Shown here one piece after another: positions 11,101-45,861 of a DNA stretch of 64,000 nucleotides. Every line of letters begins with the position of its first letter. The stretch's first letter is position 1. The notes beneath the pieces are model-generated. The model searched no databases. It was not told the DNA's origin and saw only the letters and a list, made by a program, of their open reading frames with translations. Made by a program: the position numbers and the translations under genes. The DNA is from Minisyncoccota bacterium (GTDB taxonomy: Bacteria > Patescibacteriota > Minisyncoccia > JAHIHE01 > JAGLIN01). The DNA lies in contig JAQVBZ010000004.1 in NCBI GenBank assembly GCA_028690055.1, positions 1,855-65,854 on the forward strand, written 5' to 3'.

Positions 11101-11236
11101 GGAGTAGTAGACTTTAGTCTGCGCGGCTGTCCTACGGGGGAGATAATAACGCATACGGCGCATTTATCGGCTTGGGATAGCAGCGCGGGTTAAAACCCGC
11201 TACTCCAAAACGCGCGCGGGTTGAAACCTGTTACTC
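11101..11236. mobile_element. MITE-like element, family B (GGAGTAGYAG…CTGCTACTCC) with partial tandem repeat of its right end
   Basis: ggagtagtagactttagtctgcgc … ggatagcagcgcgggttaaaacccgctactcc, then a second …gggttgaaacctgttactcc. Confidence 0.6.
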
Positions 11237-11326
11237 CAAAACAAAATGTAGCGCGGGATGAATCACATTGCTCCTAGGTATGTGGATGTTATTTGCTTTT
11301 ATCTATGTTTTTGGTAAGATGAAGTT

Positions 11327-12346
11327 ATGAAGTTTACAAGAACAAAAAAACTCTTATTTACGAACAATAAAGGGGGTGTTGGGAAGACAACGCTTGCTTT
11401 TAATTGTGCAATGTCATTTGCAAAGCAAGGCTATAAAACGGTCTTGGTTGACCTGGATCCACAATGCAATCTTTCCCGCCTAGCGCTTGGAGAAGAAGAA
11501 TTTTCAAAAACTTTATTTTCAACTACTCACAAGGATATATCCGATGTGCTTCGAGGTGTGGTTGAGGGTGGGGGTGATGTTGATTTCGCGGTTCCTTTTA
11601 TACCAATTCTAAGAAGTAATTCGAATTTATTTCTTATGAAAGGGAGCGTCGAGCTTTCTCTTTACGAAAATTTGCTTGTGACCGCTTATGGACAAGCTGC
11701 TTCCGGGCAACAAATAGGATACTTTCAGACGAGTGCGATTGACAGATTTCTACGCGAAAGAGGACTGAGTGATGAAGTAGATATTTTTATAATTGATACG
11801 TCGCCTAGTTTGTCCCTGCTTAATCAGATAATATTTCTTGGTTCTGATTATTTTGTGGTGCCAATGATGCCTGATGCTTTTAGTGTGCAGGGAATAGAAA
11901 ACTTGGGGACAATATTTGAGAAATGGAAGACTAATTGGAAAAATACAGGCAAAGCCCTTTCGGGAGATACGGAAAATAAATTTATTTTGTCTGGAGAGGG
12001 ACTGTTTATTGGGTATATAGTGAATTCTTATAACGTATATGGCGGACAGCCCATCAAGGATCATCGGCATTGGATTGATGAAATTCCTGAAAAAGTAAAG
12101 AAATTTCTTTCTGAGAAACATTGTCGAAACGGTTTGGTTGAGAAAAGCTGGAAAGAGCCTATTTCTATTATCAAAGATTATGGAAGAATCCCTGCTATGT
12201 GCCAGGAGCTGGGTGTTGCTATATTTGATTTAGATCCGTCGCTTGTTGAAGATAATCAAATAGGTACAAAGGAAAATATTGAAAAATCGAAGGAGGAATT
12301 CGATAGCTTGTCGAATAGAATACTTAATGTATTGTCTGCTTATTAA
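11327..12346 (+). CDS. ParA/MinD-family P-loop ATPase (orphan, 339 aa)
   Basis: Deviant Walker A NNKGGVGKTT, Walker A' and B (VLVDLDPQ, IFIIDTSP); no parB nearby; extended C-terminus. Confidence 0.8.
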   Translation: MKFTRTKKLLFTNNKGGVGKTTLAFNCAMSFAKQGYKTVLVDLDPQCNLSRLALGEEEFSKTLFSTTHKDISDVLRGVVEGGGDVDFAVPFIPILRSNSNLFLMKGSVELSLYENLLVTAYGQAASGQQIGYFQTSAIDRFLRERGLSDEVDIFIIDTSPSLSLLNQIIFLGSDYFVVPMMPDAFSVQGIENLGTIFEKWKTNWKNTGKALSGDTENKFILSGEGLFIGYIVNSYNVYGGQPIKDHRHWIDEIPEKVKKFLSEKHCRNGLVEKSWKEPISIIKDYGRIPAMCQELGVAIFDLDPSLVEDNQIGTKENIEKSKEEFDSLSNRILNVLSAY

Positions 12347-12368
12347 AGATTTTATCGCAGGTTTTGTT

Positions 12369-12396
12369 AAAACTCGTCTTTCGGGCGAGTTTTTAA
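12369..12396 (+). terminator. Rho-independent terminator after the ParA-like gene
   Basis: AAAACTCG-tctttcggg-CGAGTTTT + TTTTAAT. Confidence 0.65.
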
Positions 12397-12404
12397 TACC
12401 TATA

Positions 12405-12534
12405 CCGAATTAATTTAATCTGTGGCATAATGATTTCACATTTAGTCCCCCTCACCCCGACCCTCTCCCGATGGGAGAGGGAGAAATCACAAATGCTTTA
12501 CGATTGGGTTGTAGGACAGATTCAGTTAATTCGG
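12405..12534. mobile_element. MITE-like element, family C (TIR CCGAATTAATTTAATCTG; internal CCCTCTCCCGATGGGAGAGGG hairpin)
   Basis: ccgaattaatttaatctgtg … cagattcagttaattcgg; ~85% identical to 17651-17784 and to 38880-39012 (inverted). Confidence 0.65.
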
Positions 12535-12640
12535 TATTATTCTAATGTCTGGAAATAACGCAATCCTTATTCTAGAAAAAGCCCTCAGACTGGAATAACG
12601 AGGACTATGCTTTTTTAGATTTAATTAAAATCATAAAGTA

Positions 12641-14962
12641 ATGAAAACAGAAGCTGACACAAGAGCGGAATATATTGACCCCAAACTTCGCGAGAGCGGA
12701 TGGGGAGAGGTCGAGGGATCGAAAATTCTTCGGGAGTTTCGTTTGACGGAGGGGAAAATTTTGTTGGGGGGAGCAAGGGGAAAAGCAGAGATCGCCGATT
12801 ATGTTTTGGTTTATAGAAATCAGAAAGTGGCGGTGATTGAGGCGAAACGGGAAGAACTGGGCGCAACCGAAGGAGTAGCGCAGGCCAAGGCTTATGCGCA
12901 GAAACTCCAAATCGAATATACATACGCGACCAACGGCAAGGACATTTACGAGATGTCTATGAAGAGCGGGATGGAAGGGTATATTGAGAAATTTCCAAGC
13001 CCGGAAGAGCTTTGGAATAATATTCATAGCGATCATAACCAGTGGCAGGAGAAATTTACTTCTGTGCCATTTGAAATCGTGAACGGAAAGAGTGTAAGAT
13101 ATTATCAGGAGATTGCAGCCAGTCGCGCTTTGGAAGCGATTGCCTTTGAGAAGCAAAGAGTTCTTTTGACTTTGGCCACCGGAACCGGAAAAACTTTTAT
13201 TGCTTTTCAGATCGCTTGGAAGCTATTTCAAACGCGCTGGAATTTGAGACGAGATGGAAAGCGTCAGCCGCGCATCTTGTTTCTCGCCGACCGCAATATT
13301 TTGGCCGGTCAGGCCTTCAACGATTTCTCAGCTTTTCCTGAGGATGCGCTTATTCGCATCAGTCCGCAGGATATCCGAAAGAAGGGAAAAGTGCCGACAA
13401 ACGGAAGTGTGTTTTTTACGATTTTTCAGACATTTATGAGCGGGCCTAATAACACTCCTAGTTACGGAGAATATCCGCCGGATTTTTTTGATTTGATCAT
13501 CATCGACGAATGTCATCGAGGTGGCGCCAACGATGAGAGCAACTGGCGCGGGATTCTGGAATATTTTGCTCCGGCAGTCCAATTGGGGCTTACTGCTACG
13601 CCTAAGAGAAAAGACAATGTCGATACCTATCGCTATTTTGGCGAGCCGGTATATACTTATTCTTTGAAAGAAGGAATTAATGATGGTTTTTTGACACCGT
13701 TCAAAGTTAAAAGAGTAAAGACTACTTTGGATGATTATGTATATACTTCGGACGATGAGCTAATCGAGGGGGAAGTTGAGGAAGGGAAGATTTATGAAGA
13801 GGCGGACTTCAATCGTATTATTGAAATTAAAGAGCGTGAAGCAGAAAGAGTGCGGATTGTTTTAGACGAGATTAAAGAGAATGAGAAAACGATTATTTTT
13901 TGTGCCAATCAGGCGCACGCGCTGGCGGTGCGGGATTTGGTTAATCAGTTTAAGAAAAGTTCCGATCCGGATTATTGCGTGAGAGTTACGGCGAACGATG
14001 GCGCGCGCGGCGATCAATATTTGAAAACATTTCAGGATAATGAAAAAACCATCCCGACTATTTTAACCACCTCGCAAAAACTTTCCACCGGAGTCGATGC
14101 GCGCAATGTTCGCAATATTGTTTTGATGCGGCCCATTAATTCTATGATTGAGTTTAAACAAATTATCGGAAGAGGGACCAGACTTTTTGACGGGAAAGAA
14201 TATTTCACAATTCTGGATTTTGTAGATGCTTACCGGCTATTTGCGGACAAAGAATGGGATGGCGAGCCTATTGAGGAGATTGTTGAAGATGAGTCTATCG
14301 GGATTAAGAAGAAAATAGAAGAGTTTTTTCCTGAGCCTCTCTTGAAAGAGCCGGAAGAGCCGGAAGAGACCAAGAAAAAAATCAAGATTAAATTGCGGGA
14401 CGGAAAAGAGCGGGAAATTCAGCATATGATTTCCACGTCATTTTGGAGCGCGGATGGAAAGCCGATTTCAGCGGAAGAACTACTCCGAAGTATGTTTGGC
14501 AAACTTTCTGAATTTTTTACAAGCGAAGAGCAACTGCGCAGTATTTGGTCAAACCCAAAAACACGAAAGAATTTTCTCGCAAACATTTCCGATGCCGGAT
14601 ACGGAAAGACCGAGCTTGAGGCGCTGCAAAAGATGATAGATGCCGAAAATAGTGATATTTTCGACGTGCTTGCTTACATCGCTTTCGCAATACCGCCGAT
14701 TACTCGAGAGCAAAGAGCGGAGGATGCGAAAGAAAATATTTTTGATGATGCCGAGGAAGAGCAAAGAGATTTTCTGGATTTTGTGCTGCGAAAATATATC
14801 GAAAAGGGTGCGGAGGAACTGGGGGAAGAGAAACTTCCTAAATTATTGGGACTTAAGTATAATTCCATTTCCGATGCGGAACGGACTCTTGGAGGAGTGC
14901 AGGAGATTCGTGCAAGGTTCTTGGATTTGCAGAAAGATTTGTATGAGGTTATATCAAGATAA
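12641..14962 (+). CDS. hsdR: Type I restriction enzyme, endonuclease/helicase subunit R (EcoEI/type IB-like)
   Basis: 773 aa; HsdR N-terminal PD-(D/E)xK nuclease (DYVLVY…VIEAKRE), SF2 helicase motifs (TGTGKT, DECH), C-terminal EcoEI_R_C-like domain. Confidence 0.9.
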   Translation: MKTEADTRAEYIDPKLRESGWGEVEGSKILREFRLTEGKILLGGARGKAEIADYVLVYRNQKVAVIEAKREELGATEGVAQAKAYAQKLQIEYTYATNGKDIYEMSMKSGMEGYIEKFPSPEELWNNIHSDHNQWQEKFTSVPFEIVNGKSVRYYQEIAASRALEAIAFEKQRVLLTLATGTGKTFIAFQIAWKLFQTRWNLRRDGKRQPRILFLADRNILAGQAFNDFSAFPEDALIRISPQDIRKKGKVPTNGSVFFTIFQTFMSGPNNTPSYGEYPPDFFDLIIIDECHRGGANDESNWRGILEYFAPAVQLGLTATPKRKDNVDTYRYFGEPVYTYSLKEGINDGFLTPFKVKRVKTTLDDYVYTSDDELIEGEVEEGKIYEEADFNRIIEIKEREAERVRIVLDEIKENEKTIIFCANQAHALAVRDLVNQFKKSSDPDYCVRVTANDGARGDQYLKTFQDNEKTIPTILTTSQKLSTGVDARNVRNIVLMRPINSMIEFKQIIGRGTRLFDGKEYFTILDFVDAYRLFADKEWDGEPIEEIVEDESIGIKKKIEEFFPEPLLKEPEEPEETKKKIKIKLRDGKEREIQHMISTSFWSADGKPISAEELLRSMFGKLSEFFTSEEQLRSIWSNPKTRKNFLANISDAGYGKTELEALQKMIDAENSDIFDVLAYIAFAIPPITREQRAEDAKENIFDDAEEEQRDFLDFVLRKYIEKGAEELGEEKLPKLLGLKYNSISDAERTLGGVQEIRARFLDLQKDLYEVISR

Positions 14963-15008
14963 AAGATGAAACAATATCTCAATCGAACTATCCATATTGT
15001 CATAATCT

Positions 15009-15082
15009 GGAGTAGCGGGCTATAACTCGCGCGGTTGTCTCAAGGGCATCGGATAGCAGCGCAGACTGAAGTCTGCTACTCC
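15009..15082. mobile_element. MITE-like element, family B
   Basis: ggagtagcgggctataactcgcgcggttgtc … ggatagcagcgcagactgaagtctgctactcc. Confidence 0.6.
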
Positions 15083-15321
15083 GAAATGCGATGCGGAATA
15101 AAGATGTGCGCTCTATGTGTCAAAAAGGAAAAAGATTTTGCAGAATTGAAAAATAAATCATAATAAAACAAAATTAAAACTATGTCAGACACAATCAAAA
15201 AACATTCGCCTTTAAAAAACACTCCACTACGACAGGCGGGAGAATCTCTCAATGATAAACTTCAGGAAATCCTTTACGTAAAGATAATGTCTGTTATCAT
15301 CGCTATTTTTTTGTATTCTTT

Positions 15322-15975
15322 ATGGCTGTTTATGATCTATTCAGACTTTATTTTAATATAGAACCTAGACCTTCGGTCTGGTTTTTGTCTGGCATCTTAT
15401 TAATTTTGTTTTATCGTAATAAATTACAAAATTATTGGCAGGAAGCGAAAAACACCGGGTTGGGAATGCGAGGAGAAAGAATTGTAAGCGAGATGCTATA
15501 TGGACTGAAAAAAGACGGATATGAGATATTTAATGACCTGATCAATGCGAAAGGTAATATTGATCATATCATTGTAGGCCCCGCCGGTGTGTTTACTGTT
15601 GAGACCAAGACCGCTAGTAAAGCTGGAGGTGATCAGAGGATTTCATATGATGGAGAAAATATTAGGATTGATGGGTGGATTCCGAGTAGAAATATTATAA
15701 AACAGGCCTTGGCAGAAAAATATTGGCTAGAAGACTTTATTGCGCAAAGAACTGAAAAGACAGTAACTATCAAAGTCACGCCTGTTGTTATTTACCCAGG
15801 GTGGTTTATTGACCCTTCCTGCCATAAAAGCACGGAGGTTATGATATTAAACGATGACGAGAAAGGATTGCCTGCTCAACTCCAAAAGATGGAAAGGACT
15901 CTTAGTGAAGAGCAGATAGATATTTTGTCTAAACATATCGGAGACCGTATACGAGAGTGTTATAAGGGATCTTAA
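15322..15975 (+). CDS. NERD (nuclease-related domain) protein, membrane-anchored
   Basis: N-terminal TM helix; GERIVSEMLYGL…GYEIFNDL…IDHIIVGPAGVFTVETKT matches the NERD core. Confidence 0.7.
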   Translation: MAVYDLFRLYFNIEPRPSVWFLSGILLILFYRNKLQNYWQEAKNTGLGMRGERIVSEMLYGLKKDGYEIFNDLINAKGNIDHIIVGPAGVFTVETKTASKAGGDQRISYDGENIRIDGWIPSRNIIKQALAEKYWLEDFIAQRTEKTVTIKVTPVVIYPGWFIDPSCHKSTEVMILNDDEKGLPAQLQKMERTLSEEQIDILSKHIGDRIRECYKGS

Positions 15976-17358: not shown

Positions 17359-17650
17359 AATTATCGTCTCGTAATTGCGGAGTCTAATGTTTTTTTCGGG
17401 GGGGGGCGAAGGGAGGAATACAAATGCAACGGAATGCAAAATGCATATAAAATGCCGAAGGGATTATCTATTGTTCCCCCTCACCTCGACCCTCTCCCGA
17501 TGGGCGAGGGAGAAGATACGAGTATTGGAGTTTGTATGCACTGTTGTTATAAAAAAGGGCACAAGATATTGTGCCCCTACGGAATACAAAAGACGCAGGC
17601 GGTGTGTCTTTTTTTGGATGTTGGTTTTTTTGGATGTCATTAGGAAATTA

Positions 17651-17784
17651 TACCAAATCAACTTAATCTGTGACATAATGATTTCACTTTTGTTCCCCCT
17701 CACCCCAACCCTCTCCCGGTAGGAGAGGGAGAAATTCCAAATGCTGTATGACTGGATTATAGGACAGATTTAGTTAATTTGGTA
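17651..17784. mobile_element. MITE-like element, family C
   Basis: taccaaatcaacttaatctg … cagatttagttaatttggta; its right TIR contains the last 4 codons (Pro-Ile-Pro-Asn) and the stop of the pilin-like gene. Confidence 0.65.
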
Positions 17785-18190
17785 TTGGTTGGTCTGCCTG
17801 GGGAGTTTTGCCGGTAAATTTGCAGCCTGTTTCTGTGCAGATGGCGGAGGTGATATCTCCGGCGCGTGTTGGGGGTGGTGTGAATCGGATGGAGAAAGTG
17901 CCGTCCGGATCGCAGTCGCGAAGGACCGTGATGCTGTCGATTGCAGTGGCGGCGGGGTAGGTGTCGGATCCGCCGATGGCGCAGATTTCCTCGTCCGCGA
18001 CATCGTTCAGGCTTCCTCCGTCATAGCAGCACATCAGGGCGGCGGGAACGACGCTTGCGGTTGTTAGCTGAAAGGAGGCGTCATACGCTTTTCCTTGGGC
18101 GAAGAAGATGGAGGAGGCTATCACTATAACCATCTGAGAGGCGATTAAGACTTCGATAGGTATAAATCCTTTATCTTTTTGGATGTGCAT
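17774..18190 (-). CDS. Type IV pilin / pseudopilin-like protein (prepilin N-terminal methylation motif)
   Basis: Start at internal Met of the listed ORF: MHIQKDKGFIPIEVLIASQMVIVIASSIFF fits the class III signal G|F-x-x-x-E plus a hydrophobic helix; Cys-rich C-terminal half. Confidence 0.6.
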   Translation of the reverse strand: MHIQKDKGFIPIEVLIASQMVIVIASSIFFAQGKAYDASFQLTTASVVPAALMCCYDGGSLNDVADEEICAIGGSDTYPAATAIDSITVLRDCDPDGTFSIRFTPPPTRAGDITSAICTETGCKFTGKTPQADQPIPN

Positions 18191-18789
18191 AATGGTCTTG
18201 ATTAGCGAGATTATAGTATCAAAGTAGCATAGAATATTAAAAATAGGAATATCGGGGTGTTTATAGGGAGTAGGGCTATTTTTACTTCTTTTTTTCAAAA
18301 GGCTAAGCAAAATGCGGATTCAGATGCGATGCACAATGATTGGGAATTATTTGCCCCCCCTCACCCCGACCCTCTCCCGGTAGGAGAGGGAGAAAGACAG
18401 ATGCGACAGACTGAATAATATACAAAATGCCAAGGAATTGTTTTTTTCTCCATGTGAAAGGATTATTTATTATTACCTCTTATCCCGATCCTTTCCCTGT
18501 AGGAGGGGGAGAAAAGCAAATATAAAATACCACCTCCTGATTCGACTCTTTCCAGCTGTCGCGATTACGCTTTGGGGTGGCGATGCTCGATGGGCTAGGG
18601 AAAAAGACTAAATACCTGTCGTACTGACATGATAGTTTTTTGGGTTGATTTTATTCCAGTATTATCCTTGCAAACGAGGATCCCGAAATGAGTTCAGGAT
18701 GACAATTCGGAAAACGAGGGCACAAAATATTGTGCCCCTACGGGGTAAATGCAAAATGCTAGATGAGGCATTTGCTCTATTCGAATTGG

Positions 18790-18819
18790 ACAGCAGCGCA
18801 GACTGAAGTCTGCTACTCC
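18790..18819. repeat. Half-copy (one TIR) of family B element
   Basis: gacagcagcgcagactgaagtctgctactcc. Confidence 0.5.
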
Positions 18820-18890: not shown

Positions 18891-18920
18891 TAAAAAAAAG
18901 AAGAGGCTTTTATGCCTCTC
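18891..18920 (-). terminator. Rho-independent terminator of the 18910-20331 gene (minus strand)
   Basis: On minus strand GAGAGGC-ataaaa-GCCTCTT followed by T9; stop codon lies in the loop. Confidence 0.65.
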
Positions 18921-20331
18921 TCAAGTCTATCTTATAAAGTTTGTTGTCGTTGCCGATTAAATATACCAAGTCTCCGTCGCCGAGATAGAAGATGCCTCGA
19001 CCGGAAGCATTGTCCGTCAGGTAGAAAGTGTTGCGGCCGTCGCGGCTGTCCAGCTCGGTGAATTTGAATGAATTGCTTTCTTGGTAGAGGAGATGTTCCT
19101 CGTCGGCGTAGACGTAGATATTACTGAGGGTGCCGCTGAAACGGGTGAGGAGTTCGTTTTCTCCTGCCGATTTGATCGGCTGGGAAGTTTTGTCTTCGAC
19201 ATAATATACCCAGATTTCATTATTGTTGTAATAGAGAATGCGCTGTCCTCTTTGGAAGAAGCGAGCGTCTTTTATCCCGGAATTTATTTTGCGCGTCTGG
19301 GCGTCACGGTCGATGAGGTAGAGTGTGTTATTGGAGAGCACAAGCAGCCTGCCTCCGTACCTTTGTAGAGAGAAGGCGGCTTTTTTGGTAAAGCCCTCGG
19401 GCATCAAGCTTATGCGCACGCTATATGTCGGATTGTCCAGATTGATAGAATAGAGGGCGGGAGTGATGGAAGTATCGTCGTCCTTGAAAAAGAAAAGTGT
19501 GCCTTGATAAACATAGAAATTGTTGATGCCTGTACCTACTTGCTCGATTTCTTTGTTGACATAGTCGAAAGAAAAGACGGCATTGTCCTTGCCGAAGATA
19601 ATGTAATGGTCGAACAGATAGACAGGGGTATCGGGGGTCCGGCTCAGGGTTTCGGCCACGTCAGTGGAAACGAGATAGACTCGGTTGCTGTCGCGCAGGT
19701 CGATGAGATAAAGGTTGGCGGTGGTTTCGATGGCGACACGTCCGTCATCTTCGGTCCACTTTACGTCCTGAATCTCTCCCATCAGAGAGAGTTGCGTCTC
19801 GTCGAGTACCAGGCTATACTTTTCGTCGCGGATATTTACCAAAAAGAGCCCGGACTCGACGCCTACTGTACCCTGAAAGAGCAGCTCGTTCTTGTTCGTG
19901 GCTATATAAGTTTTGCCGTCGATGGGGAGGGTCAGGTCGGGGAGCACCGGCGTATTTTCGTATTTATTCTTTAGAAGCACGATATTTTCATATTTGTCCA
20001 CCTGTCCGGACTTGATGGTCACGTTCTTCCGCCATTCGTTGAAGTTGTCTTGGTTAACTTTGATTTCGTAGGTCCTAGGCTCGAGATTTTCGATTTTGAC
20101 AAAAGCGGAAAGTACTCCGCCGAGGAAACCGTTGTTTTTAAAAATCTCGTCGTCTTTGTAAATAGTAGCGTCTCTGGGGGTCGTCCGCAGCACGATGGCG
20201 CCGGCTTGGAAACTTTCGCCCGTTTTCGGGTCGTAGTTATATCCGAAACTGTAATATAGCGTACCGGCCAGGATTAGAAAGAAAACGCTAATGCAAAGGT
20301 AAAAATACACCTTGAATTTTGAATCTTTCAT
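18910..20331 (-). CDS. hypothetical membrane-anchored protein (473 aa), PEGA-like N-terminal region
   Basis: N-terminal TM helix, AGAIVLRTTPRDATIYKDDEIF PEGA-like segment, long β-rich extracytoplasmic domain. Confidence 0.6.
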   Translation of the reverse strand: MKDSKFKVYFYLCISVFFLILAGTLYYSFGYNYDPKTGESFQAGAIVLRTTPRDATIYKDDEIFKNNGFLGGVLSAFVKIENLEPRTYEIKVNQDNFNEWRKNVTIKSGQVDKYENIVLLKNKYENTPVLPDLTLPIDGKTYIATNKNELLFQGTVGVESGLFLVNIRDEKYSLVLDETQLSLMGEIQDVKWTEDDGRVAIETTANLYLIDLRDSNRVYLVSTDVAETLSRTPDTPVYLFDHYIIFGKDNAVFSFDYVNKEIEQVGTGINNFYVYQGTLFFFKDDDTSITPALYSINLDNPTYSVRISLMPEGFTKKAAFSLQRYGGRLLVLSNNTLYLIDRDAQTRKINSGIKDARFFQRGQRILYYNNNEIWVYYVEDKTSQPIKSAGENELLTRFSGTLSNIYVYADEEHLLYQESNSFKFTELDSRDGRNTFYLTDNASGRGIFYLGDGDLVYLIGNDNKLYKIDLREA

Positions 20332-22770: not shown

Positions 22771-22907
22771 GTACTATTTGAAAAATGCGGAAGGAAAAAT
22801 GGCTGGGGATTGTTTATCCCCCCCCTCACCCCGACCCTCTCCCGATGGGCGAGGGAGAAATGCAATGCGACGCTCCTTTATTAAATATAATTCGAATAGG
22901 TAGATTT

Positions 22908-24885: not shown

Positions 24886-25233
24886 AATCTTTTATTGAAA
24901 GCTGGGGGCAATCGTGTTATTGCGAGGAGGTACTACAATATAGCCTGTCCTCGCGGAGGCGGGGACGGCAATCCCGATATTATGTGGGAAAACTTAATAT
25001 AAGGAATAATCTTGTACCCCCACCCCGCCCCTCTCCCGATGGGAGAGGGGATGTGTTTGCTTTTGTGTTGTTTGCAGAGACGCGATGTATCGTGTCTGAT
25101 GTTTCAGTGAAAATATACCAAGCCGTTATGTTTGTATTTTTTTAAAAGGGCACAAGATATTGTGCCCTTACGACTATAAAAGGTTTGATTCCAGAGCCTA
25201 AATATGGTAACCTAAATATATAAGGACAAAAAT

Positions 25234-27850: not shown

Positions 27851-27988
27851 GAGGGTAGCTGGATGTGATCGATAATTTTTGTAAAGATTCCGGGTATTCT
27901 GATTGTCGTCGCGGTGCTTCCTCCGCGCAATTATACAAGCTTAATAATTCTCTGACAGAATGTTAATTGAAACAAATACACGCTAAGT

Positions 27989-28155
27989 TTGTCATCCCGA
28001 AAGGCGTACTCGCCTGAGGGATCTGGGAAATATATTAGCTATTGTGAATATTATCTATAAAGATAACTTTATTATCGAATATGATGTCTTTCCCGGATTC
28101 CGGGGGGGGCGCAGAGGGCACAAGATATTGTGCCCCTACAATTCGGAATGACGAA
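27989..28155. mobile_element. Composite MITE-like element (family A termini + GGGCACAA palindrome); part of a ~280-bp block duplicated at 46.9-47.2 kb
   Basis: ttgtcatcccgaaagg…gggcacaagatattgtgcccctacaattcggaatgacgaaa. Confidence 0.65.
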
Positions 28156-28283
28156 ATATATTTGGTTTTTAAAGCACAAAAGTATCTATTCTGTTAAGAA
28201 TGTCAGTAAATTATTAAACTTGTACGGCAATAAAAATCATCGCGGGCTTTCGAAGACGGGGTTATAAAATATAAAAAATAAAC

Positions 28284-29420: not shown

Positions 29421-29466
29421 GTCTGTCATTCCGGAATTTCGCTTCGGCGAAATATCCGGAATCCCT
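29421..29466. repeat. Family A left terminus plus hairpin (partial element)
   Basis: ctgtcattccggaatttcgc-ttcg-gcgaaatatccggaat. Confidence 0.45.
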
Positions 29467-31214: not shown

Positions 31215-31433
31215 TCATGCTGGCTTTATTGTCATAAACGCAGGACCGAATCTTTGGATTCGGTCTTTTTGGAATATATGCCACGTACCCAGATCTTTTG
31301 GAGTACACGCCGGAGCGTGGTCTCCGGACCCGGTCTTTAGGGTTTGAAATATCTTCATTTAAACCATCCGTCATGGCGTTTCCTAAGTGTCGTAAAATAG
31401 ATTTAACTCTATTTATCATTCTTCTGCAAGGCT

Positions 31434-31577
31434 GTCATCCCGGAATTTGTGAAATAAATATCCGGGATCCCGTTACCAAGCCAATAATACGTCGTTATAC
31501 AACCGAACCATAATATTCGCTTTGCATAGTCTCGGGATGCCGGATATTTCGCAGTAACGAAATTCCGGAATGACAAA
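31434..31577. mobile_element. MITE-like element, family A
   Basis: tgtcatcccggaattt … aaattccggaatgacaaa (17-bp TIR). Confidence 0.6.
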
Positions 31578-36544: not shown

Positions 36545-37256
36545 TAAAAATAATTCTATGACTACAGAACAGTTTGAAATTTTGATTACTTTTTTCGGTG
36601 CTTTTTTCGGTGCTTTTTTTGCATTTATTTTCATGCTAAAAATTGAGCAGGGGCATCGAAATGAAGAGATCAAAAATGCACTTTTCGAAATTAGCGTCAG
36701 GAGTAGTGTTGATAATGAAATAGCTATTGATAAAAATATCTCGATCATAGGTTCTTTGCAAAAAGGAATTTCTGAAAACTCTTCTTTTTATTATCCCTTT
36801 GGTGGATTTTGTTTATTTCAAAAAAACAGTTCTGCGGTTTTAAATAAGCTGGGAGGTATTGACCTAATGTTTAAAATTATTGATTTTGATTATAAAACTC
36901 AAAAGATTAATCAGGAGATGAATGATATAGGCAAGCCTTTTTTGGGTAAAAATTTGATTAAAGAAAAAGATTCAAATAGTTTTTTTAACGGTGAAACTTA
37001 TTTTGATTCAGATAGCTACGCAAATGATTTATTAGAAAAAAAACATGCGTTGGAAATGCTAGAGGAAGATAATATTAAGATTCTAGTAAGGACTAATACT
37101 TTGTTAAAAAAGAAAAATAAAGGGGTGTTTTTCAGATTGTTTCAAAATGATAAGGTTACTGATAACGATATAGAAAATGAACAGATAGAAATAGAGCAAT
37201 TTAAAGAAGTTTATAAAAAGAGAAGAGAACCAAAAATAAATACTACAAATCTATGA
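36504..37256 (+). CDS. hypothetical membrane protein, AT-rich and low complexity
   Basis: N-terminal TM (ILITFFGAFFGAFFAFIFML); K/N/D-rich remainder. Confidence 0.4.
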   Translation: MHFPDFSHSFEMTTKNNSMTTEQFEILITFFGAFFGAFFAFIFMLKIEQGHRNEEIKNALFEISVRSSVDNEIAIDKNISIIGSLQKGISENSSFYYPFGGFCLFQKNSSAVLNKLGGIDLMFKIIDFDYKTQKINQEMNDIGKPFLGKNLIKEKDSNSFFNGETYFDSDSYANDLLEKKHALEMLEEDNIKILVRTNTLLKKKNKGVFFRLFQNDKVTDNDIENEQIEIEQFKEVYKKRREPKINTTNL

Positions 37257-37636
37257 CCCACGAAGAAATTTGCGAAAGAATATTTGAGCACGCTTGTCGT
37301 TGTCTCAAGATGAAGGGCTTTACATTCAAGCCCAAGGTTGTCCGTGCGGGGGACGGGTATGTCAAAGTATATAAGCTGGGATATACTGATCTCGCTTCCA
37401 AATTGGTGGTGATTGATATCTATACGCAGAAGCTCAAGAAGCCGAAAAAATATAGTGGCATCCTCGCGGTGATGGCTCATGAATTAGCTCATCATCAGAA
37501 GAAGCCTTATCGCCAGCTTGACCTGAGGCGGAGGAAATGGATAAACCGCATCCATTATCCGGAATTTTATAAACAATGCAACAAGAATATCGAGAAGTTT
37601 AAGAAAGATAAGGTTTTGAAACAGTTCTATGAATAA
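37253..37636 (+). CDS. small HExxH putative zinc metallopeptidase
   Basis: …ILAVMAHELAHHQKKPY…; 4-nt overlap with upstream ORF. Confidence 0.5.
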   Translation: MTHEEICERIFEHACRCLKMKGFTFKPKVVRAGDGYVKVYKLGYTDLASKLVVIDIYTQKLKKPKKYSGILAVMAHELAHHQKKPYRQLDLRRRKWINRIHYPEFYKQCNKNIEKFKKDKVLKQFYE

Positions 37637-37647
37637 AATATATCGTG

Positions 37648-37752
37648 GAGTAGCTGGTTTTAACCCGCGCCGTTGTCCTATGCTGTTTGAACCTCCGCAG
37701 TCGCACGTTCTGTTTGCATAGGATAGCAGCGCAGGTTAAAACCTGCTACTCC
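37648..37752. mobile_element. MITE-like element, family B
   Basis: ggagtagctggttttaacccgcgccgttgtcc … ggatagcagcgcaggttaaaacctgctactcc. Confidence 0.6.
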
Positions 37753-37774
37753 GCACGTATAATCTTTTAAATCT

Positions 37775-38878
37775 ATGAATAAAAATAATCCTAAAAAAGT
37801 CTTCGTCGGTATCAGTGGCGGGGTTGATTCTGCCGCTTCGGCGACACTGCTTCAGCAGCAGGGTTTTGAGGTGACAGGAATATATATGCGGATTTGGAAA
37901 GAAAAAGGTTCGCCGCTGGAAGCGAAAGGGGAAGAGGAAAATGCCAGGCGTGTTGCCAAAGAATTGGAGATAGGATTCGTAACCGTTGACTTACGCAAAG
38001 AATTCAAGAAAGAAATTGTGGATTATTTTCTTTCGCAGTACGAGAGCGGTCGCACTCCCAATCCTTGTGTGCGGTGCAATCGTGAAATCAAGTTCGGGCT
38101 TCTCTTCAAGAAATCGATGGAAATGGGTGCGGACTTTTTCGCGACTGGACATTACGTCCGGATCAGGCAAAACATTTCGCAAGGGAAAAATGGGAGGAAA
38201 ATTAAAAAATATAAACTTTCCAAAGCGAAAGACATACAAAAAGACCAGTCATATTTTCTCTATAATCTGAATCAAAAAATATTGAGCAAGACCATTTTCC
38301 CCTTGGGAAGCCTTACCAAACCGGAGGTCAGAGAAATCGCTAAAGAGAATAGCCTATTCGTGCACGACAAGTCCGATAGTCAGGAAGTATGTTTTATCAC
38401 CGACAAATATTACGGCGAATTTTTGAAGAGGATGAAAGTGAAGATGAAAGCGGGGGATATCGTAGACGAAGAGGGTAATGTTTTGGGCGAACATCGCGGG
38501 CTGCCGCTTTACACGATCGGGCAGAGGCGAGACATCCGTATCGGCGGCACCGGACCGTATTTCGTGGTCGGACTCGATTACAGAAATAACCATCTGGTCG
38601 TGAGTCGCGACGGCAACAGTAAAAAATTATTTGTTAAAAAGTTCACTCTCCGTGATGTGAATTGGGTAGGCAAGCAGCCAGAGACTTATCCTCTTAAAGT
38701 AAAAATCAAAACCCGTTATCGTATGGAAGCGGTCGACTCGCAAGTCTCTAAAGAAAAAAATAAGATCATCGTCACGTTATCAAAAAAAAGCCGTGCTGTT
38801 ATGCCTGGCCAGTCGGCAGTATTCTATTTGCGCAGTGATGTTCTGGGTGGCGGGGTTATCGATAGGATTTTGGAATGA
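37775..38878 (+). CDS. mnmA: tRNA-specific 2-thiouridylase
   Basis: PP-loop SGGVDS, catalytic NPCVRCN, 367 aa. Confidence 0.9.
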   Translation: MNKNNPKKVFVGISGGVDSAASATLLQQQGFEVTGIYMRIWKEKGSPLEAKGEEENARRVAKELEIGFVTVDLRKEFKKEIVDYFLSQYESGRTPNPCVRCNREIKFGLLFKKSMEMGADFFATGHYVRIRQNISQGKNGRKIKKYKLSKAKDIQKDQSYFLYNLNQKILSKTIFPLGSLTKPEVREIAKENSLFVHDKSDSQEVCFITDKYYGEFLKRMKVKMKAGDIVDEEGNVLGEHRGLPLYTIGQRRDIRIGGTGPYFVVGLDYRNNHLVVSRDGNSKKLFVKKFTLRDVNWVGKQPETYPLKVKIKTRYRMEAVDSQVSKEKNKIIVTLSKKSRAVMPGQSAVFYLRSDVLGGGVIDRILE

Positions 38879-38879
38879 T

Positions 38880-39012
38880 ACTAGATCGACTAAATCCGTT
38901 CCACAATCCAGCCATATAGTATTCGGAATTTCTCCCTCTCCCATCGGGAGAGGGTCGGGGTGAGGGGGAATAAAAGTACAATCATTATGTCACAGATTAA
39001 TTTAATTTTGTA
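38880..39012. mobile_element. MITE-like element, family C (inverted orientation)
   Basis: Reverse complement aligns with 12405-12534 and 17651-17784 including the CCCTCTCCCGATGGGAGAGGG hairpin. Confidence 0.6.
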
Positions 39013-39043
39013 TAAGTTTATCTCTAATTTTTAACTAAAAAAA

Positions 39044-39439: not shown

Positions 39440-39583
39440 TTGTCATCCCGAAAGATGTACCCATCTGAGGGATCTGGGAAATATATCTGTTTGGGAGATA
39501 TTGATTTTATAAATATAAATTTAAAACCGCATCGTATTTTTCCCAGATTCCTCAATCGGAGTACCTCATTTCGGAATGACAAA
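39440..39583. mobile_element. MITE-like element, family A
   Basis: ttgtcatcccgaaag…gagggatctgggaaatata … tttcccagattcc…tttcggaatgacaaa. Confidence 0.6.
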
Positions 39584-40651: not shown

Positions 40652-40715
40652 TGTGGGCGGTTGACTTCGTGGTTCTTATAAGATAAGATTTGAAAAAAGA
40701 GGGGGGGATGATACG

Positions 40716-40889: not shown

Positions 40890-40941
40890 AAAGTTCTCTG
40901 ACCTATGCGGTCCATTCGTGGAAGGTCGTGACAGAAATTCA

Positions 40942-40975
40942 GGAGACAGCAAGAAGCTGTTCTCTATTTTTTTTC
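40942..40975 (+). terminator. Rho-independent terminator-like hairpin + T8
   Basis: gagacagc-aagaa-gctgttctc + tattttttttt. Confidence 0.5.
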
Positions 40976-41004
40976 ACAAAAAACCAAATCGCTCGATTAA
41001 AGTT

Positions 41005-41034
41005 GTTGACATATCTTTCTTTTTTGCCTATTCT
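41005..41034 (+). promoter_or_regulatory. sigma70-like promoter
   Basis: TTGACA-17 nt-TATTCT. Confidence 0.45.
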
Positions 41035-41626
41035 ATCGCTAGGGTTTTGTGCCTCGAAATAAAATGAAAAAAATAGAAGGGTGATAAGAAAATGAGACCA
41101 TTAAGAATGTATCCGACCTGTGGTGTTTTTTTTAATCCCGTGGAAATACTGGGTATCCCTCGAGATCTCAGGTCTATGGGGCTGAGAAAAGCAATACTAG
41201 TTTTTTGTGATAAGAGAACGGAGTGCCAAAAAGGACTTTTCCCGGCGGAGAAGATGTATCATGTGTGCAGAGAACTTGTTCTTCTGATAAAGGAAGAATT
41301 TCCCCAGAGCACGGATCCGTTACGTTTAATGAGGTTCCCGATGCCTTTATTGCGATGCGAGAGAGAAGAACTCTCTTGTTGAAATTGGCATTAAAAACGG
41401 ACAAGAAGGTGTAATATGCGCGAAAGCATAAGACGCCTTTTATTTTTGTCTAAATAAAGAGAAGAAAAATTCTTCAGACATTGGTAATATGGTTATGGAT
41501 ATAATTTTTAAAGGCCGAACGCACACATGCTAAAGCATGCAAAAGTTCTTTTTTTAGTTTTTCCGACCATTGACACGCGGAATAAGCGAATATATAATTA
41601 TATTCGTGCTCAATTTTAAAAAATCT

Positions 41627-42955
41627 ATGAAAACAATGATTAAGAGAATTTTGCTGTCTTCTTCCCTGATTCTTGCCGCCGCGACAATGCCCGTCAGTCT
41701 TTATGCCAGCGGGTCTGAAGCCGGCTTGCAAGAAGCGACGTCTGTTTCTGAAATACTGCTCGCGCTGATCCTTATCCTTTTTGCGGCCAAAATCGGAGGG
41801 GAACTTTTTGAGAAGATGAAACAACCCGCGGTCTTAGGCGAGCTCATATTCGGTATACTTATCGGAAATATCGCCCTTCTGTCTGGAGATGTTTTTTCTT
41901 TCGGAAATCTTTTTAGCAATGAAATCATAAGCACCTTGGCAGAGCTGGGGGTTATGATATTGCTCTTTCAAGTCGGACTTGAATCCAATATCAAAGACAT
42001 GATGAAGGTCGGGATATCATCAGTCTTGGTAGCTGTTATCGGCGTCGCCGTTCCTATGGTTTTGGGATATTTCGTTAGCAGTTGGATTTTGCCTGGGGCC
42101 GGATTCAATACTTGGTTGTTTATCGGTGCGACTCTGACTGCGACTTCTGTCGGAATCACTGCCCGTGTTTTAAAGGACTTAGGTAAACTGTCGATTCCCG
42201 AAGCGAAAATTATTCTGGGAGCCGCCGTTGTTGATGATGTTCTCGGTCTTATAATCCTTTCTATCGTCAGCGGTATCATCGTCTCCGGATCTATAAGCGT
42301 GGGGTCGATCGCCTACACCAGTTTCATCTCTTTGGCGTTTTTGGCAGGCTCTATCATTATCGGCCTCTGGACTGCGCCAAAAATAGGAGCCTGGGTTTCC
42401 AAGATGCATGTCGAGGGAATGAAGATCGTGACCGCATTTCTTTTTATGTTCATAATGTCGTATCTGGCAATCGAGGCCGGATTGGCGGCAATCGTCGGCG
42501 CCTTTGCTGCCGGACTCGTTTTGGACGATGTAATCTTTGTAAATAAAAAAGAGCATCCGATCGATGTTTTAGTGAAACCTCTTTATTGCATTTTTGTTCC
42601 TATCTTTTTTGTGTTGATGGGAATCCAGGTCGATTTATCAGTGTTTTTCGATATGCAGGTCATTATGATTGCCTTGGGAATTACAGTCGCTTCTATTATC
42701 GGCAAGCAGGCCTGTTCTGTCGGAGTCAAATGTCCCGAAGCGAGCAAGCTGATCGTCGGTATCGGAATGATTTCTCGCGGTGAAGTCGGACTTATCTTCG
42801 CCAGTGTCGGCAAGGGGTTGGGTGTCATTGATGATTCGGTTTTCGGTGCCATCGTTATTATGGTCATTTTGACTACATTGGTTACCCCGCCGCTCTTGAA
42901 ATGGAGCATACAGAGGAAAGATCTTATGTTCGACAATGTGAAGACTGATGATTGA
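41627..42955 (+). CDS. Monovalent cation:proton antiporter, CPA2 (Kef/NapA-type) family
   Basis: 12-13 TM helices, conserved GGELFEK…PAVLGELIFGILIG and LLFQVGLE motifs; probable signal-like N-terminus starting MKTMIKR. Confidence 0.8.
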   Translation: MKTMIKRILLSSSLILAAATMPVSLYASGSEAGLQEATSVSEILLALILILFAAKIGGELFEKMKQPAVLGELIFGILIGNIALLSGDVFSFGNLFSNEIISTLAELGVMILLFQVGLESNIKDMMKVGISSVLVAVIGVAVPMVLGYFVSSWILPGAGFNTWLFIGATLTATSVGITARVLKDLGKLSIPEAKIILGAAVVDDVLGLIILSIVSGIIVSGSISVGSIAYTSFISLAFLAGSIIIGLWTAPKIGAWVSKMHVEGMKIVTAFLFMFIMSYLAIEAGLAAIVGAFAAGLVLDDVIFVNKKEHPIDVLVKPLYCIFVPIFFVLMGIQVDLSVFFDMQVIMIALGITVASIIGKQACSVGVKCPEASKLIVGIGMISRGEVGLIFASVGKGLGVIDDSVFGAIVIMVILTTLVTPPLLKWSIQRKDLMFDNVKTDD

Positions 42956-43057
42956 TATTTGAAATATCTGACAAGCAGAGAAGTCATCGCTTCCCTGTTT
43001 TTTTATTTTCTACAAAAAAGTGATATAATGAAAATATCGAAAAAATAATCTATATCT

Positions 43058-44254
43058 ATGATCAAAAAAATCGTGAAAAAACTTAACAAGAAGAAGTATG
43101 AAGCGCTTACCGGGGGAGAGGCTACGGCGTCAGCGATGAGACAAATCAATCCTGACGTGGCGGCAATATATCCCATTACCCCGCAGACTCCTATTATCGA
43201 AGCCTTTGCCAAATTTGTGGCGGACGGAGAAGTGGACACTACGCTTATCAATGTTGAATCCGAACACAGCGCGCTTTCGGCGGTGGTCGGTGCGGCGGCG
43301 GCTGGAGGACGGGCGATGACCGCGACCTCTTCGCAGGGGTTGGCACTGATGGCGGAGGTCGTTTATATTACTTCCGGCTCGAGATTGCCCGTCGTGATGG
43401 CGATTTCCAACCGTGCTCTTTCCGCTCCGATCAATATCCATTGTGACCACACTGACTCTATGCTTTTGCGGGACTCGGGATGGATCCAAATCTATTCTGA
43501 AAGCGCGCAGGAGGCCTACGACAATACCTTGATTGCGCTTAAGGTGGCAGAGAACGCGAAAGTGCAATTGCCGGCGATGGTGATGCAGGACGGTTTCATT
43601 ACTTCGCACAATGTCGAGAATGTCTTGCTGATTGATGACAAGAAGGCAAAGGCTTACATCGGCAAATACGAGATGGAATATCCGCTTCTTAATTTCCAAA
43701 AGCCGGTAACTGTCGGTCCGGTCGATCTCTTCGACTATTTCTTCGAGCACAAATTCCAGCAGGCAGAAGCGATGGATGAGGCAAAGAAAGCCTTCAAGCT
43801 GGCGGACCAGGAATTCTATAAAATGACTGGAAGGAAATATGACCTTATTGAAGAATACAAGACTCGCGATGCCGATTTCGTGGTCGTGGCACTCTCTTCC
43901 ACCTGCGGTACGGCCAAGATGGCGGTTGATAAATTGCGCAGGGAAGGTAAGAAAGTCGGACTCCTTAAAATCAGGGTGCTGCGCCCGTTTCCGGACAAAG
44001 AAATCGCCCGCGCGCTGGAAGGCAAGAAAGCTGTGGCAGTTCTCGACCGATCCATCTCCTTCGGCTCTTATAGCCCGGTCTGCTCCGAAGTCCGCTCTGC
44101 GCTTTACTATTCGAAGAAACGTCCAAAATTACAGAATTGCATCTACGGCCTGGGCGGTAGAAACATCGGACTCGGGGATATTGAAAAAGTTTTCAGGGAA
44201 TTGATAGCCGGGAAAGTCAATGACGGAATCAAATATATCGGGCTTAGGAAATAG
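43058..44254 (+). CDS. 2-oxoacid:ferredoxin oxidoreductase alpha subunit (PorA/KorA-like), no adjacent beta subunit
   Basis: 398 aa; POR N-terminal domain I (…AAIYPITPQTPIIE…) and domain II/transketolase-C-like. Confidence 0.75.
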   Translation: MIKKIVKKLNKKKYEALTGGEATASAMRQINPDVAAIYPITPQTPIIEAFAKFVADGEVDTTLINVESEHSALSAVVGAAAAGGRAMTATSSQGLALMAEVVYITSGSRLPVVMAISNRALSAPINIHCDHTDSMLLRDSGWIQIYSESAQEAYDNTLIALKVAENAKVQLPAMVMQDGFITSHNVENVLLIDDKKAKAYIGKYEMEYPLLNFQKPVTVGPVDLFDYFFEHKFQQAEAMDEAKKAFKLADQEFYKMTGRKYDLIEEYKTRDADFVVVALSSTCGTAKMAVDKLRREGKKVGLLKIRVLRPFPDKEIARALEGKKAVAVLDRSISFGSYSPVCSEVRSALYYSKKRPKLQNCIYGLGGRNIGLGDIEKVFRELIAGKVNDGIKYIGLRK

Positions 44255-44387
44255 TCCATATATCAAAAAACAGCATAGTGATATGTTGTTTTTTGGGCTT
44301 GTTATTCTGCTATCGGTCTAATCGCTTTTCCAAATTCACAAATGATTTGCGAGCTTAGAAAAATGAAATAGGAAGAAGATGAAAGAA

Positions 44388-44693
44388 TTATTCTCTCATC
44401 TTCTCTAACGTCTTTAATGCAATTATCCATAATACCACGGATAAAAACAAGAATATGCCAGAGGCTGTCTGTCCTGTGAATAGAACGTTACTCGTGATAG
44501 TTACCTCTTGATGGGGGTCAATATTTGCTCTTATTGCATGTACGAATATCGCGCTGCAACTGAAAAATATTACTTCCGCTAATTTTTTTAAATTGTAGTT
44601 GTAATCGTTATTGTCGTTGTTATTGTTATCGTCCAATATTGTAACCTCGTTTTTCGTACTGTATAAATATACACTAAATATAAGAAATATCAA
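44388..44693 (-). CDS. hypothetical small membrane protein
   Basis: ORF with two hydrophobic segments and an Asn/Asp-rich linker; weak. Confidence 0.3.
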   Translation of the reverse strand: MIFLIFSVYLYSTKNEVTILDDNNNNDNNDYNYNLKKLAEVIFFSCSAIFVHAIRANIDPHQEVTITSNVLFTGQTASGIFLFLSVVLWIIALKTLEKMRE

Positions 44694-44909
44694 TGGCAGA
44701 AGGTAATGTATATATGTTTGTCTTGATAAAGATATCTGAAATCTGGTTTATTAAGTATTTGATGCTGAGTCTTGAAATACGGATATCTTTTGATTCGTAA
44801 ATATTGTGATTGCCATGTCGGAAAGTGCATGAGATGTTGAGCCCTTACGGCCCGCAATGGTAGAAAGAAACATTCTCTTCATATATACGGTTGCCCGATT
44901 TCTCTTATT

Positions 44910-45635
44910 ATGCTAAATTATAAAAAGTTAATAAACTCTCATTCTGATATGAAAAAAGGAAATACTTACATTCTGTCTCTCGGAGGATCGTTGATCGTTC
45001 CGGATGAGGTCGATTACAAGTTTTTGAAGGGCTTTGTGGAATTGATTACGAAGAGAACCGAGCAGGGCGATAAATTTGTAATCGTCTGTGGCGGGGGAGG
45101 AGTCAACCGCAAATACAATCAGGCGGCGCAGAAGGTGCGTCCGATGTCCAATACTGAATTGGACTGGCTGGGCATTCATGCCACGCGTTATAATGCGCAG
45201 CTGGTGCGGCTACTATTCGGTAAGATCGCTTACGAAGAAGTGGTCGTTAATCCTTACGAGAAGGCCGTGACTCGAAAGCCGGTTATAATTGGCGCTGGAT
45301 ACGAGCCGGGGTGGTCGAGTGACTACGACGCGGTCTATCTGGCGGACACATACAAAATCAAGAATATCGCCAACCTCTCCAATATCGATTATGCCTATGA
45401 CAAAGATCCTCGCAAATTCAAGGATGCTCAGAAAATCAAAGATATTAGCTGGAAAGATTTTCGCAAAATCGTCGGCGACAAATGGGAACCGCGTATGAGC
45501 AAGCCTTTCGACCCCATCGCCAGTCGTGAAGCGGAGAAATTGGGATTGCAAGTCGTGATTATGAACGGCAAGAAGCTGAAGAATTTGGAAAAATATTTGA
45601 ATGGAGAGAAATTTCAGGGGACGGTGATAAAATAA
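44910..45635 (+). CDS. pyrH: Amino-acid-kinase-family protein, probable UMP kinase (archaeal-type PyrH)
   Basis: ILSLGGSLI… and VIVCGGGG glycine-rich loops of the AAK fold; ~230 aa. Confidence 0.6.
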   Translation: MLNYKKLINSHSDMKKGNTYILSLGGSLIVPDEVDYKFLKGFVELITKRTEQGDKFVIVCGGGGVNRKYNQAAQKVRPMSNTELDWLGIHATRYNAQLVRLLFGKIAYEEVVVNPYEKAVTRKPVIIGAGYEPGWSSDYDAVYLADTYKIKNIANLSNIDYAYDKDPRKFKDAQKIKDISWKDFRKIVGDKWEPRMSKPFDPIASREAEKLGLQVVIMNGKKLKNLEKYLNGEKFQGTVIK

Positions 45636-45687
45636 TGTTTAAATAGAATAAGACGGCCTCGTGTCGTCTTTTTTTTGGTATGATAAA

Positions 45688-45861
45688 TGGAGTAGCGGGA
45701 TTTATCCCGCGCGGTTGTCCCAAGCCACTAAACCCTTCGCAATCGCACTTCCTATTCACATAAGATAGCAGCGCAGGTTAAAACCTGCTACTCCATCGTG
45801 TTTTTAGCAATTGTACGTTCTATTCGCGTAGGACAACTGCGCAGACTAAAGTCTGCTACTC
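45688..45861. mobile_element. MITE-like element, family B with duplicated right end
   Basis: ggagtagcgggatttatcccgcgcggttgtccc … gatagcagcgcaggttaaaacctgctactcc … gcgcagactaaagtctgctactcc. Confidence 0.6.

Follow-up and report, generated by a model that had tools for sequence, protein, structure and literature searches.

A family of GTAG-tagged REP elements, very probably with a cognate RAYT, in a Patescibacteria/CPR bacterium

The window analysed here, a 64,000-nt stretch of the Minisyncoccota contig JAQVBZ010000004.1 (assembly GCA_028690055.1, positions 1,855 to 65,854), carries a family of short palindromic repeats, which an earlier note on the same DNA had described as miniature inverted-repeat transposable elements (MITEs) in appearance, with self-palindromic terminal inverted repeats (TIRs) of about 30 bp. 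We consider it very probable that they form a family of GTAG-tagged repetitive extragenic palindromes (REPs) of the type known as REPIN (REP doublet forming a hairpin) or BIME (bacterial interspersed mosaic element), served by a cognate REP-associated tyrosine transposase (RAYT), in a bacterium of the Patescibacteria, or candidate phyla radiation (CPR). The units share one structure, their hairpins covary, they are restricted to one lineage, in relatives they lie beside the gene of a protein recognized by a RAYT model, and they differ in presence between species. In related genomes the family is tied to a single-copy Y1/HUH RAYT, which occupies a conserved site and is bracketed by the same units.

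The repeat unit and its copies

The unit, of ~36 nt, consists of TGGAGTAGC, a 7-bp hairpin, GCGC and NGYTRTCC, the last being an inner arm that most but not all units have; direct reading of five places in one orientation gives T-GGAGTAGC-[RGRNTTYANYCY]-GCGC-NGYTRTCC. Unit positions 7-13 pair with positions 16-22, and GTAG stands at the 5' foot of the hairpin, its last G being the first base of the stem. Thus, the earlier observation that each terminus is itself a hairpin is borne out, and the repeats are real: direct reading puts the copies within 1 nt of the positions first reported. Eleven intact units and one decayed unit are present, all of them intergenic and lying between 11101 and 45862, a density of 11-12 units per 64 kb or about one per 6 kb. 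They are arranged as four head-to-head inverted doublets (74-106 nt), two of which have extra tandem right-hand units, and one solo unit.

When no more than one mismatch is allowed, GGAGTAGC-N12-GCGC is matched 11 times in the window, against 0.14 (sd 0.35) in shuffled sequence, and none of the 100 shuffles reached 11. GGAGTAGC is exact in nine of these units and has one mismatch in the other two. A covariance model, trained on a set that included window units, recovered with filters off the identical set of 11 (E ≤ 0.012), the next match having E = 0.43. With three mismatches allowed the pattern count equals that expected by chance, and therefore only the 11 units are taken as real. The copies are as follows.

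Starts and strands of the 11 units: 11101+, 11183-, 11214-, 15009+, 15059-, 18796-, 37647+, 37729-, 45689+, 45771-, 45839-
11101..11206 (+), head-to-head REP doublet, 106 nt; 290 nt past the hsdS stop and 121 nt ahead of the start of a ParA-like gene
11101-11124 (+), left unit of this doublet, GGAGTAGT, stem GTAGACT/AGTCTGC
11183-11206 (-), right unit of this doublet, stem GCGGGTT/AACCCGC
11214..11237 (-), extra tandem REP unit, 31 nt from the preceding unit; 22.9 bits in the covariance model
11251..11274 (-), decayed third tandem unit, GGAGCAATGTGATTCATCCCGCGC; hairpin lost, 3 mismatches, missed by the covariance model
15009..15082 (+), head-to-head REP doublet, 74 nt; units 15009-15032 (+) and 15059-15082 (-); 47 nt past the hsdR stop
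18784..18819 (-), solo REP unit (18796-18819) with inner arm TGCTGTCC
37647..37752 (+), head-to-head REP doublet, 106 nt; units 37647-37670 (+) and 37729-37752 (-)
45689..45794 (+), head-to-head REP doublet, 106 nt; units 45689-45712 (+) and 45771-45794 (-)
45804..45862 (-), tandem copy of a right half: part of the spacer, inner arm and unit 45839-45862

The duplicated right ends noticed earlier in two copies are present at 11183/11214/11251, with a tandem period of about 31 nt, and at 45771/45839, where the repeated block of 68 nt includes half the spacer (75% identity vs 45736-45795). Unit 11214-11237 has a bare tail (GCGCGCGTTTTGG type), as in units beside RAYT genes. A unit does exist at 18790-18819, formerly called a half-copy, but it is a solo unit that still has its inner arm, 91 nt beyond the stop codon of 18910-20331, a minus-strand gene. 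The 37647 doublet occupies most of the 138-nt gap between the open reading frame (ORF) 37253-37636 and mnmA (37775-38878). It is 81% identical to the 45689 doublet, which lies 54 nt past the stop of an amino-acid-kinase-family gene (44910-45635). The neighbours hsdS (9633-10811), ParA-like ATPase (11327-12346) and hsdR (12641-14962) had been correctly named; two elements flank them (11101-11274 and 15009-15082), not three.

Hairpin conservation and doublet structure

Hairpins were surveyed in units collected from the window and related loci, with the 12 hairpin bases left unconstrained. All seven pairs are formed in 205 of 271 such units and six pairs in a further 30. In a set of 66 distinct units the share of cells that pair is 90.0%, whereas shuffles give 72.9% and slid partners 19-46%; double-sided changes occupy 102 cells, where 28.7 were expected, a number reached in 0 of 500 shuffles. 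The stem exists in complementary versions (GCAGACT/AGTCTGC, GCAGGTT/AACCTGC, GCGGGAT/ATCCCGC, GCGGGTT/AACCCGC, GCGAACT/AGTTCGC, GCAGGCT/AGCCTGC and others), and the hairpins include some G-T pairs. The double-sided stem changes therefore define the motif as GTAG followed by a hairpin that is kept by compensatory change; a GTAG tag ahead of a palindrome is the hallmark of REPs.

In doublets the GTAG ends face outward, an arrangement called 'HH' dimers in a survey of such repeats (PMC3733652), and spacers of these head-to-head dimers measure 20-60 nt. Two pairs of arms are able to pair, the outer GGAGTAGC/GCTACTCC and the inner GCGC-GGTTGTCC/GGATAGCA-GCGC. Only one of the 44 doublets from the window and related loci has identical hairpins, the other 43 being heterodimers. 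Since the two local hairpins usually differ, the predicted fold of the single-stranded DNA (ssDNA) is an outer stem, two small hairpins and an inner stem; for 11101-11206 the predicted outer stem has 8 bp. The 37647 doublet has similar hairpins and is predicted to form a single long hairpin, the best ssDNA fold of the four window doublets (-31.4 kcal/mol, z = -7.6); the others have z of -2.9, -2.9 and -1.5, and two of the four fold clearly better than shuffles. In all four, the G/T-rich arm comes first on the coding, G-rich strand. A strand polarity due to selection for G-T wobble at the level of RNA or ssDNA was considered and dropped: among the 44 doublets, neither the coding strand nor GC skew is consistently related to it.

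These data bear on the MITE explanation, under which the repeats would be deletion derivatives of an insertion sequence with a DDE transposase, bounded by TIRs of ~30 bp and moved by cut-and-paste. DDE-type bacterial MITEs, such as Correia/NEMIS, RUP and ERIC, are comparable in size, and they too have inverted symmetry, lie between genes and occur in many copies; the doublets are indeed mirror-symmetric, small (74-106 nt) and multi-copy. The comparison breaks down at the ends. No target-site duplication or direct repeat is visible in the flanks read at the four window doublets. The arms usually carry different stem variants, and single 'ends' occur solo (18796) or in tandem (11183/11214/11251, and beside RAYT genes at loci L048, L088 and L089), arrangements that do not arise from a TIR element. 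What had been taken for a TIR is a complete GTAG-tagged REP unit, and the element a head-to-head dimer of such units. The only transposase-like gene found beside units encodes a Y1 RAYT, a tyrosine HUH protein; no DDE transposase was detected in the window by Pfam, nor beside units at the loci inspected by eye, the other fetched loci being unscanned. We give a MITE origin almost no credence; the earlier description stands in so far as these are small, non-autonomous repeats with hairpin-forming ends.

Distribution across genomes

The full pattern, GGAGTAGC-N12-GCGC-NGYTRTCC, was searched in 185,579 species-representative genomes, a collection from which the window is absent; the scan demanded the inner arm, so that bare units like those beside RAYT genes were uncounted. 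It returned 76 exact matches in 67 stretches, 68 of them in four related metagenome-assembled genomes (MAGs) labelled Patescibacteria, Paceibacterota or Saccharibacteria: JBAXYM01 (25), CAZKLR01 (15), CAZDCJ01 (14) and JAQUYG01 (14). The related MAGs hold more units under a relaxed pattern. The remaining eight matches come one each from eight other phyla; the hairpin is missing in seven, and these singletons are therefore treated as chance. Over a conserved 6.4-kb block (window 50239-56760) the window shares 82-84% identity with JBAXYM; in syntenic genes its identity to JAQUYG and CAZDCJ is 65-88%. It is also identical to metagenome contigs from JGI 3300014204/3300014206 and ENA ERZ27247361, and JGI 3300028602 is a further sample that holds the organism. 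Its host is accordingly a member of the CPR.

A RAYT bracketed by the same units

In CAZDCJ, an ORF of 177 amino acids (locus L048:12-545) lies beside a cluster of units and matches the Pfam domain Y1_Tnp (7e-12, 45.9 bits). Its homolog in JAQUYG (L038), 58% identical, has units on both sides, and the RAYT-like proteins flanked by units in relatives are 172-178 residues long. Four homologs pass the NCBIfam equivalog model NF047646 (REP_Tyr_transpos) with 99-103 bits (cut-off 80). The best match of solved structure is PDB 4ER8, the TnpA-REP of Escherichia coli (3e-5, 27 bits). The HUH motif (HYH) and the tyrosine motif YIHHNP are invariant among homologs, and we take the tyrosine of the latter to be the catalytic residue, as in the family at large. 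Relatives numbered 271 in a metagenome scan and 209 in a protein search at E ≤ 1e-10, some of the latter being annotated as 'transposase' of Patescibacteria or Anaerolineae.

GGAGTAGC-hairpin units bracket the RAYT gene at L038, L048, L073, L075, L088, L089, L094, L096, L099, L128 and L149. They mostly point at it from both sides (22 upstream-forward and 20 downstream-reverse, vs 12 and 8 in the opposite directions), and many of these loci have the layout of a canonical REPtron. A near-identical REP (GGAGTAGCAGACTTTAGTCTGCG) flanks enzymes that are merely 44-47% identical. The gene adjoins one histidine-kinase gene in five genomes (JAQUYG, the L073 organism, CAZDCJ, L075 and JBAXYM), and each MAG has one homolog in the sequence examined, the MAGs being partly sampled. 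A single-copy gene at a conserved locus is the vertically inherited pattern of domesticated RAYTs. A strict scan for GTAG with a perfect hairpin at 83 RAYT loci found units at 23 of the 69 with enough flank. Many RAYT relatives carry tags of TTAG or CTAG type, or other flanks, and the GTAG tag is therefore not universal in this clade.

The earlier note had likened the ends to IS200/IS605 and to palindrome-associated transposable elements (PATEs). On a second alternative explanation, the repeats would derive from IS200/IS605 elements, be moved by TnpA(IS200) with or without TnpB/IscB, and insert 3' of a TTAC-like tetranucleotide. Part of the likeness is sound: the associated enzyme does belong to the Y1 HUH group, the hairpins are subterminal, DNA-hairpin recognition and lack of a target-site duplication are common to both systems, and the transposases of IS200 and ISHp608 appear among the weaker structure-database matches. 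However, the same four homologs that pass the RAYT model fail the transpos_IS200 equivalog (29-34 bits, cut-off 55), and the gene is single-copy and syntenic across species, not scattered as a multi-copy transposase. The two ends of a PATE are unlike each other, and its hairpins lie on one strand; the units here are like inverted repeats with a GTAG tag, mirror-symmetric and without asymmetric ends. The window contains no ORF of TnpB size with a transposase domain, and the four doublets show neither a TTAC-like target nor any conserved flanking tetranucleotide beyond T...A, itself a mere extension of the palindrome. A PATE origin is thus highly improbable.

If the REP/RAYT system works here as E. 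coli TnpA-REP does, the RAYT would recognize the hairpin and its GTAG guide on ssDNA, for instance at the replication fork, would cleave and rejoin DNA without target duplications, and would spread or maintain units and doublets in trans. The copies in the window would then be non-autonomous, relying on a RAYT encoded elsewhere.

In distant relatives (L088, L089, L094, L099 and L128, with RAYTs 44-47% identical) the units stand in tandem, 2-9 to an array, with periods of 24-32 nt, and the arrays directly flank the RAYT on both sides; no dispersed copies were present in the 6-12 kb fetched. Because of this difference, the family may have expanded genome-wide only in the lineage of the window.

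Turnover between relatives

JAQUYG (L027) lacks the doublet that precedes mnmA, its orthologous gap being 22 nt long, and the same gap in CAZDCJ (L065) holds a different doublet of 57 nt. After hsdR, the JAQUYG ortholog has a half-unit remnant alone, at the hsdR stop; after hsdS, both the window and JAQUYG have a doublet of 106-107 nt. When whole doublets are compared together with their spacers, each of the 15 most similar pairs comes from a single genome, identity across contigs being at most 94%, which fits a within-genome copying of the doublet as a unit.

Several observations weigh against a REP family mobilized by a cognate RAYT. No RAYT is encoded in the 64-kb window (tblastn, and Pfam on 30 ORFs), nor are the TnpA(Y1), TnpB or IscB genes to which the earlier note had pointed, or any other transposase, a Y1 RAYT being present in relatives; and a search for the organism's own RAYT in metagenome contigs found none linked to it. 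In the JBAXYM MAG the RAYT is truncated and the repeats are still present. The window doublets are mutually 66-85% alike, which gives no sign of recent activity here, and in a 98.7%-identical strain both elements, one of them the 15009 doublet, are unchanged, without insertion polymorphism. No precise empty site was seen, orthologous gaps (~75% identity) being too diverged for breakpoints. Finally, the way in which RAYTs disseminate REPs is not known to have been settled by experiment, even in E. coli.

Four RAYT contigs came from samples that also hold the window organism: L073 and L074 (both Ga0172381), L075 (Ga0265294) and L155 (ERZ27247350). They are candidates for its RAYT, none with a link to it. 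Flank identity and the repertoire of REP stems tie L073 to a JAQUYG-like organism; flanks and stem repertoire likewise tie L074 and L155 to a JBAXYM-like one. The stem repertoire of L075 matches that of the window, but no link was established.

The JBAXYM gene (L021:490-1200, JBAXYM010000005.1) is reduced to an N-terminal remnant of its first ~25 codons, the rest being replaced by ~640 nt made of two other repeat families and a tandem repeat of ~120 nt. An intact allele exists in the metagenome contigs L074 and L155, 99.4% identical between the two samples. The truncation could be a real gene death or a misassembly at repeats.

Possible host functions

A third explanation dispenses with a transposase: the repeats would be host-encoded structural signals (terminators, mRNA 3' stabilizers or protein-binding sites) that selection or gene conversion had spread. 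All copies are found 11-290 nt past the end of a gene, hairpin upkeep is compensatory and tolerates some G-T pairs, and the repeats persist in the relative with the truncated RAYT; such roles of REPs are known in model bacteria (PMC3733652). Scored as intrinsic terminators, all 11 units fail for want of a T-tail, and the 45689 doublet is immediately preceded by a separate terminator-like hairpin with a T-run (45650-45678). The whole window gave no Rfam match at gathering thresholds, and the repeated, tight bracketing of RAYT genes across many loci would be left unexplained. As a replacement for the REP/RAYT interpretation we therefore hold this to be very unlikely; it is compatible with it as a secondary role. 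Because the repeats follow gene ends, any that are transcribed probably fold within the 3' region of the mRNA, which would be a secondary, host-level effect.

In a broader version, which we regard as rather unlikely, the REP heterodimers and at least four other palindromic families would together be host-maintained structural elements of a streamlined CPR lineage. They could act as four-way-junction DNA or as mRNA 3'-end structures, and would outlast the loss of the RAYT, as in the JBAXYM MAG with other repeats in the gene body. If true, ultra-small symbiotic genomes would actively retain a dense 'punctuation' system of repeats.

Comparison with known systems

REP/RAYT systems have been described mainly from Proteobacteria and a handful of other phyla. 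In E. coli, REP/BIME elements are accompanied by the RAYT TnpA-REP (YafM; PDB 4ER8), reportedly studied by Ton-Hoang and by Messing in 2012. They share with the present family the mosaic inverted dimers of different REP types and a single chromosomal RAYT flanked by REPs (REPtron), and the HUH and Y-x-x-x-N-P motifs of the enzymes align. The sequence similarity is weak, enzymes of the Patescibacteria clade are known from sequence alone, and the Y and Z REPs of E. coli have bulged stems or long loops, unlike the short perfect hairpins found here. The REPINs of Pseudomonas fluorescens, said to have been described by Bertels and Rainey in 2011, also differ, being mostly homodimers.

The closest counterparts are the GTAG-tagged REPs, including HH dimers, surveyed across eight listed phyla (Di Nocera et al. 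2013, PMC3733652). In these, GTAG also stands at the foot of a stem of 6-9 bp closed by a loop of 2-4 nt, complementary changes in the stem set the sub-families apart, the repeats are extragenic and downstream of genes, and units bracket the RAYT gene. Their HH dimers likewise have GTAG ends outside and spacers of 20-100 bp with complementary ends, and singletons and tandem (HT) groups occur as well. The host here, Patescibacteria/CPR, is outside the eight phyla of that survey, and the window family has a longer conserved tag (TGGAGTAGC) and a conserved inner arm (GCGC-NGYTRTCC). A near-exclusive use of heterodimers and a conserved inner arm both fall within the variation recorded before in other REP families (PMC3733652).

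Thus, the kind of element is well known, and the host group appears to be unreported for it: in the library searched, we found no paper linking RAYT or REP to Patescibacteria/CPR, the one co-mention concerning an archaeal locus. CPR genomes, of about 1 Mb, are regarded as streamlined. One REP unit per ~6 kb, together with several other palindromic families, shows that dense repeats between genes are tolerated or put to use in them. Short-read assemblies break at repeats of this kind, and chimeric MAG contigs can result; the signature TGGAGTAGC-hairpin-GCGC-NGYTRTCC could in turn aid binning or tracking of this clade. Beyond these uses, the family is an expected extension of a known system.

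Other observations near the repeats

A sigma-70-like consensus match, TTAAAA-16-TATAAT, lies at 37736-37763. Its -35 falls within the loop of the right-hand REP unit, and its -10 immediately beyond the element, 12 nt ahead of the ATG of mnmA.

In the window, a 148-nt tandem duplication (10809-11086, 88% identity) follows immediately on the hsdS stop; it is single-copy in the 98.7%-identical strain (L156-L158). This duplication, not a REP, is the cause of the upstream length difference between the two. In the strains of L156-L158, the 98.7%-identical ParA-hsdR-NERD block starts at 11085, 16 nt left of the REP doublet; upstream of it (window 8400-11085) the hsdS alleles differ (374, 392 and 410 residues), as do other genes. 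The differing hsdS side and the shared ParA-hsdR-NERD side suggest a recombination boundary at or near the repeat. For the same strain comparison, a look-up of the gene adjoining the 45689 element returned no record.

The window also holds other palindromic families. A second GTAG-tagged one, GTAGGGGCACAA-N4-TTGTGCCC(T)TTTT, has six copies, one of them terminator-like by score; no copy was found in ~420 kb from four related MAGs, and it may represent either a further REP family or a family of terminators. Palindromes with G/C tracts, CACCCCGACCCTCTCCC-N4-GGGAGAGGG, make up another family, which lies within units of 130-150 nt; it has at least seven copies, one of which is between the ParA-like gene and hsdR, and is presumably the 'first' MITE-like family of the earlier note. 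Their positions are given below.

4965-4990 (+), 17555-17578 (-), 18718-18741 (-), 25148-25171 (-), 28116-28139 (-), 47101-47124 (-): second GTAG palindrome family
12398-12545, 17468-17524, 17645-17786, 18350-18395, 22815-22861, 25009-25054, 38870-39018 (-): G/C-tract palindrome family

A composite repeat of ~290 nt occurs at 27934-28227 and 46922-47212 (copies 85-88% identical), and also at 39440-39486 and 5022-5099 (-). Within it is TTGTCATCCCGAAAG...GAGGGATCTGGGAAA, and the GGGCACAA palindrome forms its end; its short core is also present in the JBAXYM MAG. A further palindromic family, TGTCATTCCGGAATTTCG...CGAAATATCCGGAATCCC, lies at 29424-29465, 31433-31450, 31534-31575 and 59297-59337, and is frequent in the loci of JBAXYM (16 matches), JAQUYG (6) and CAZDCJ (4).

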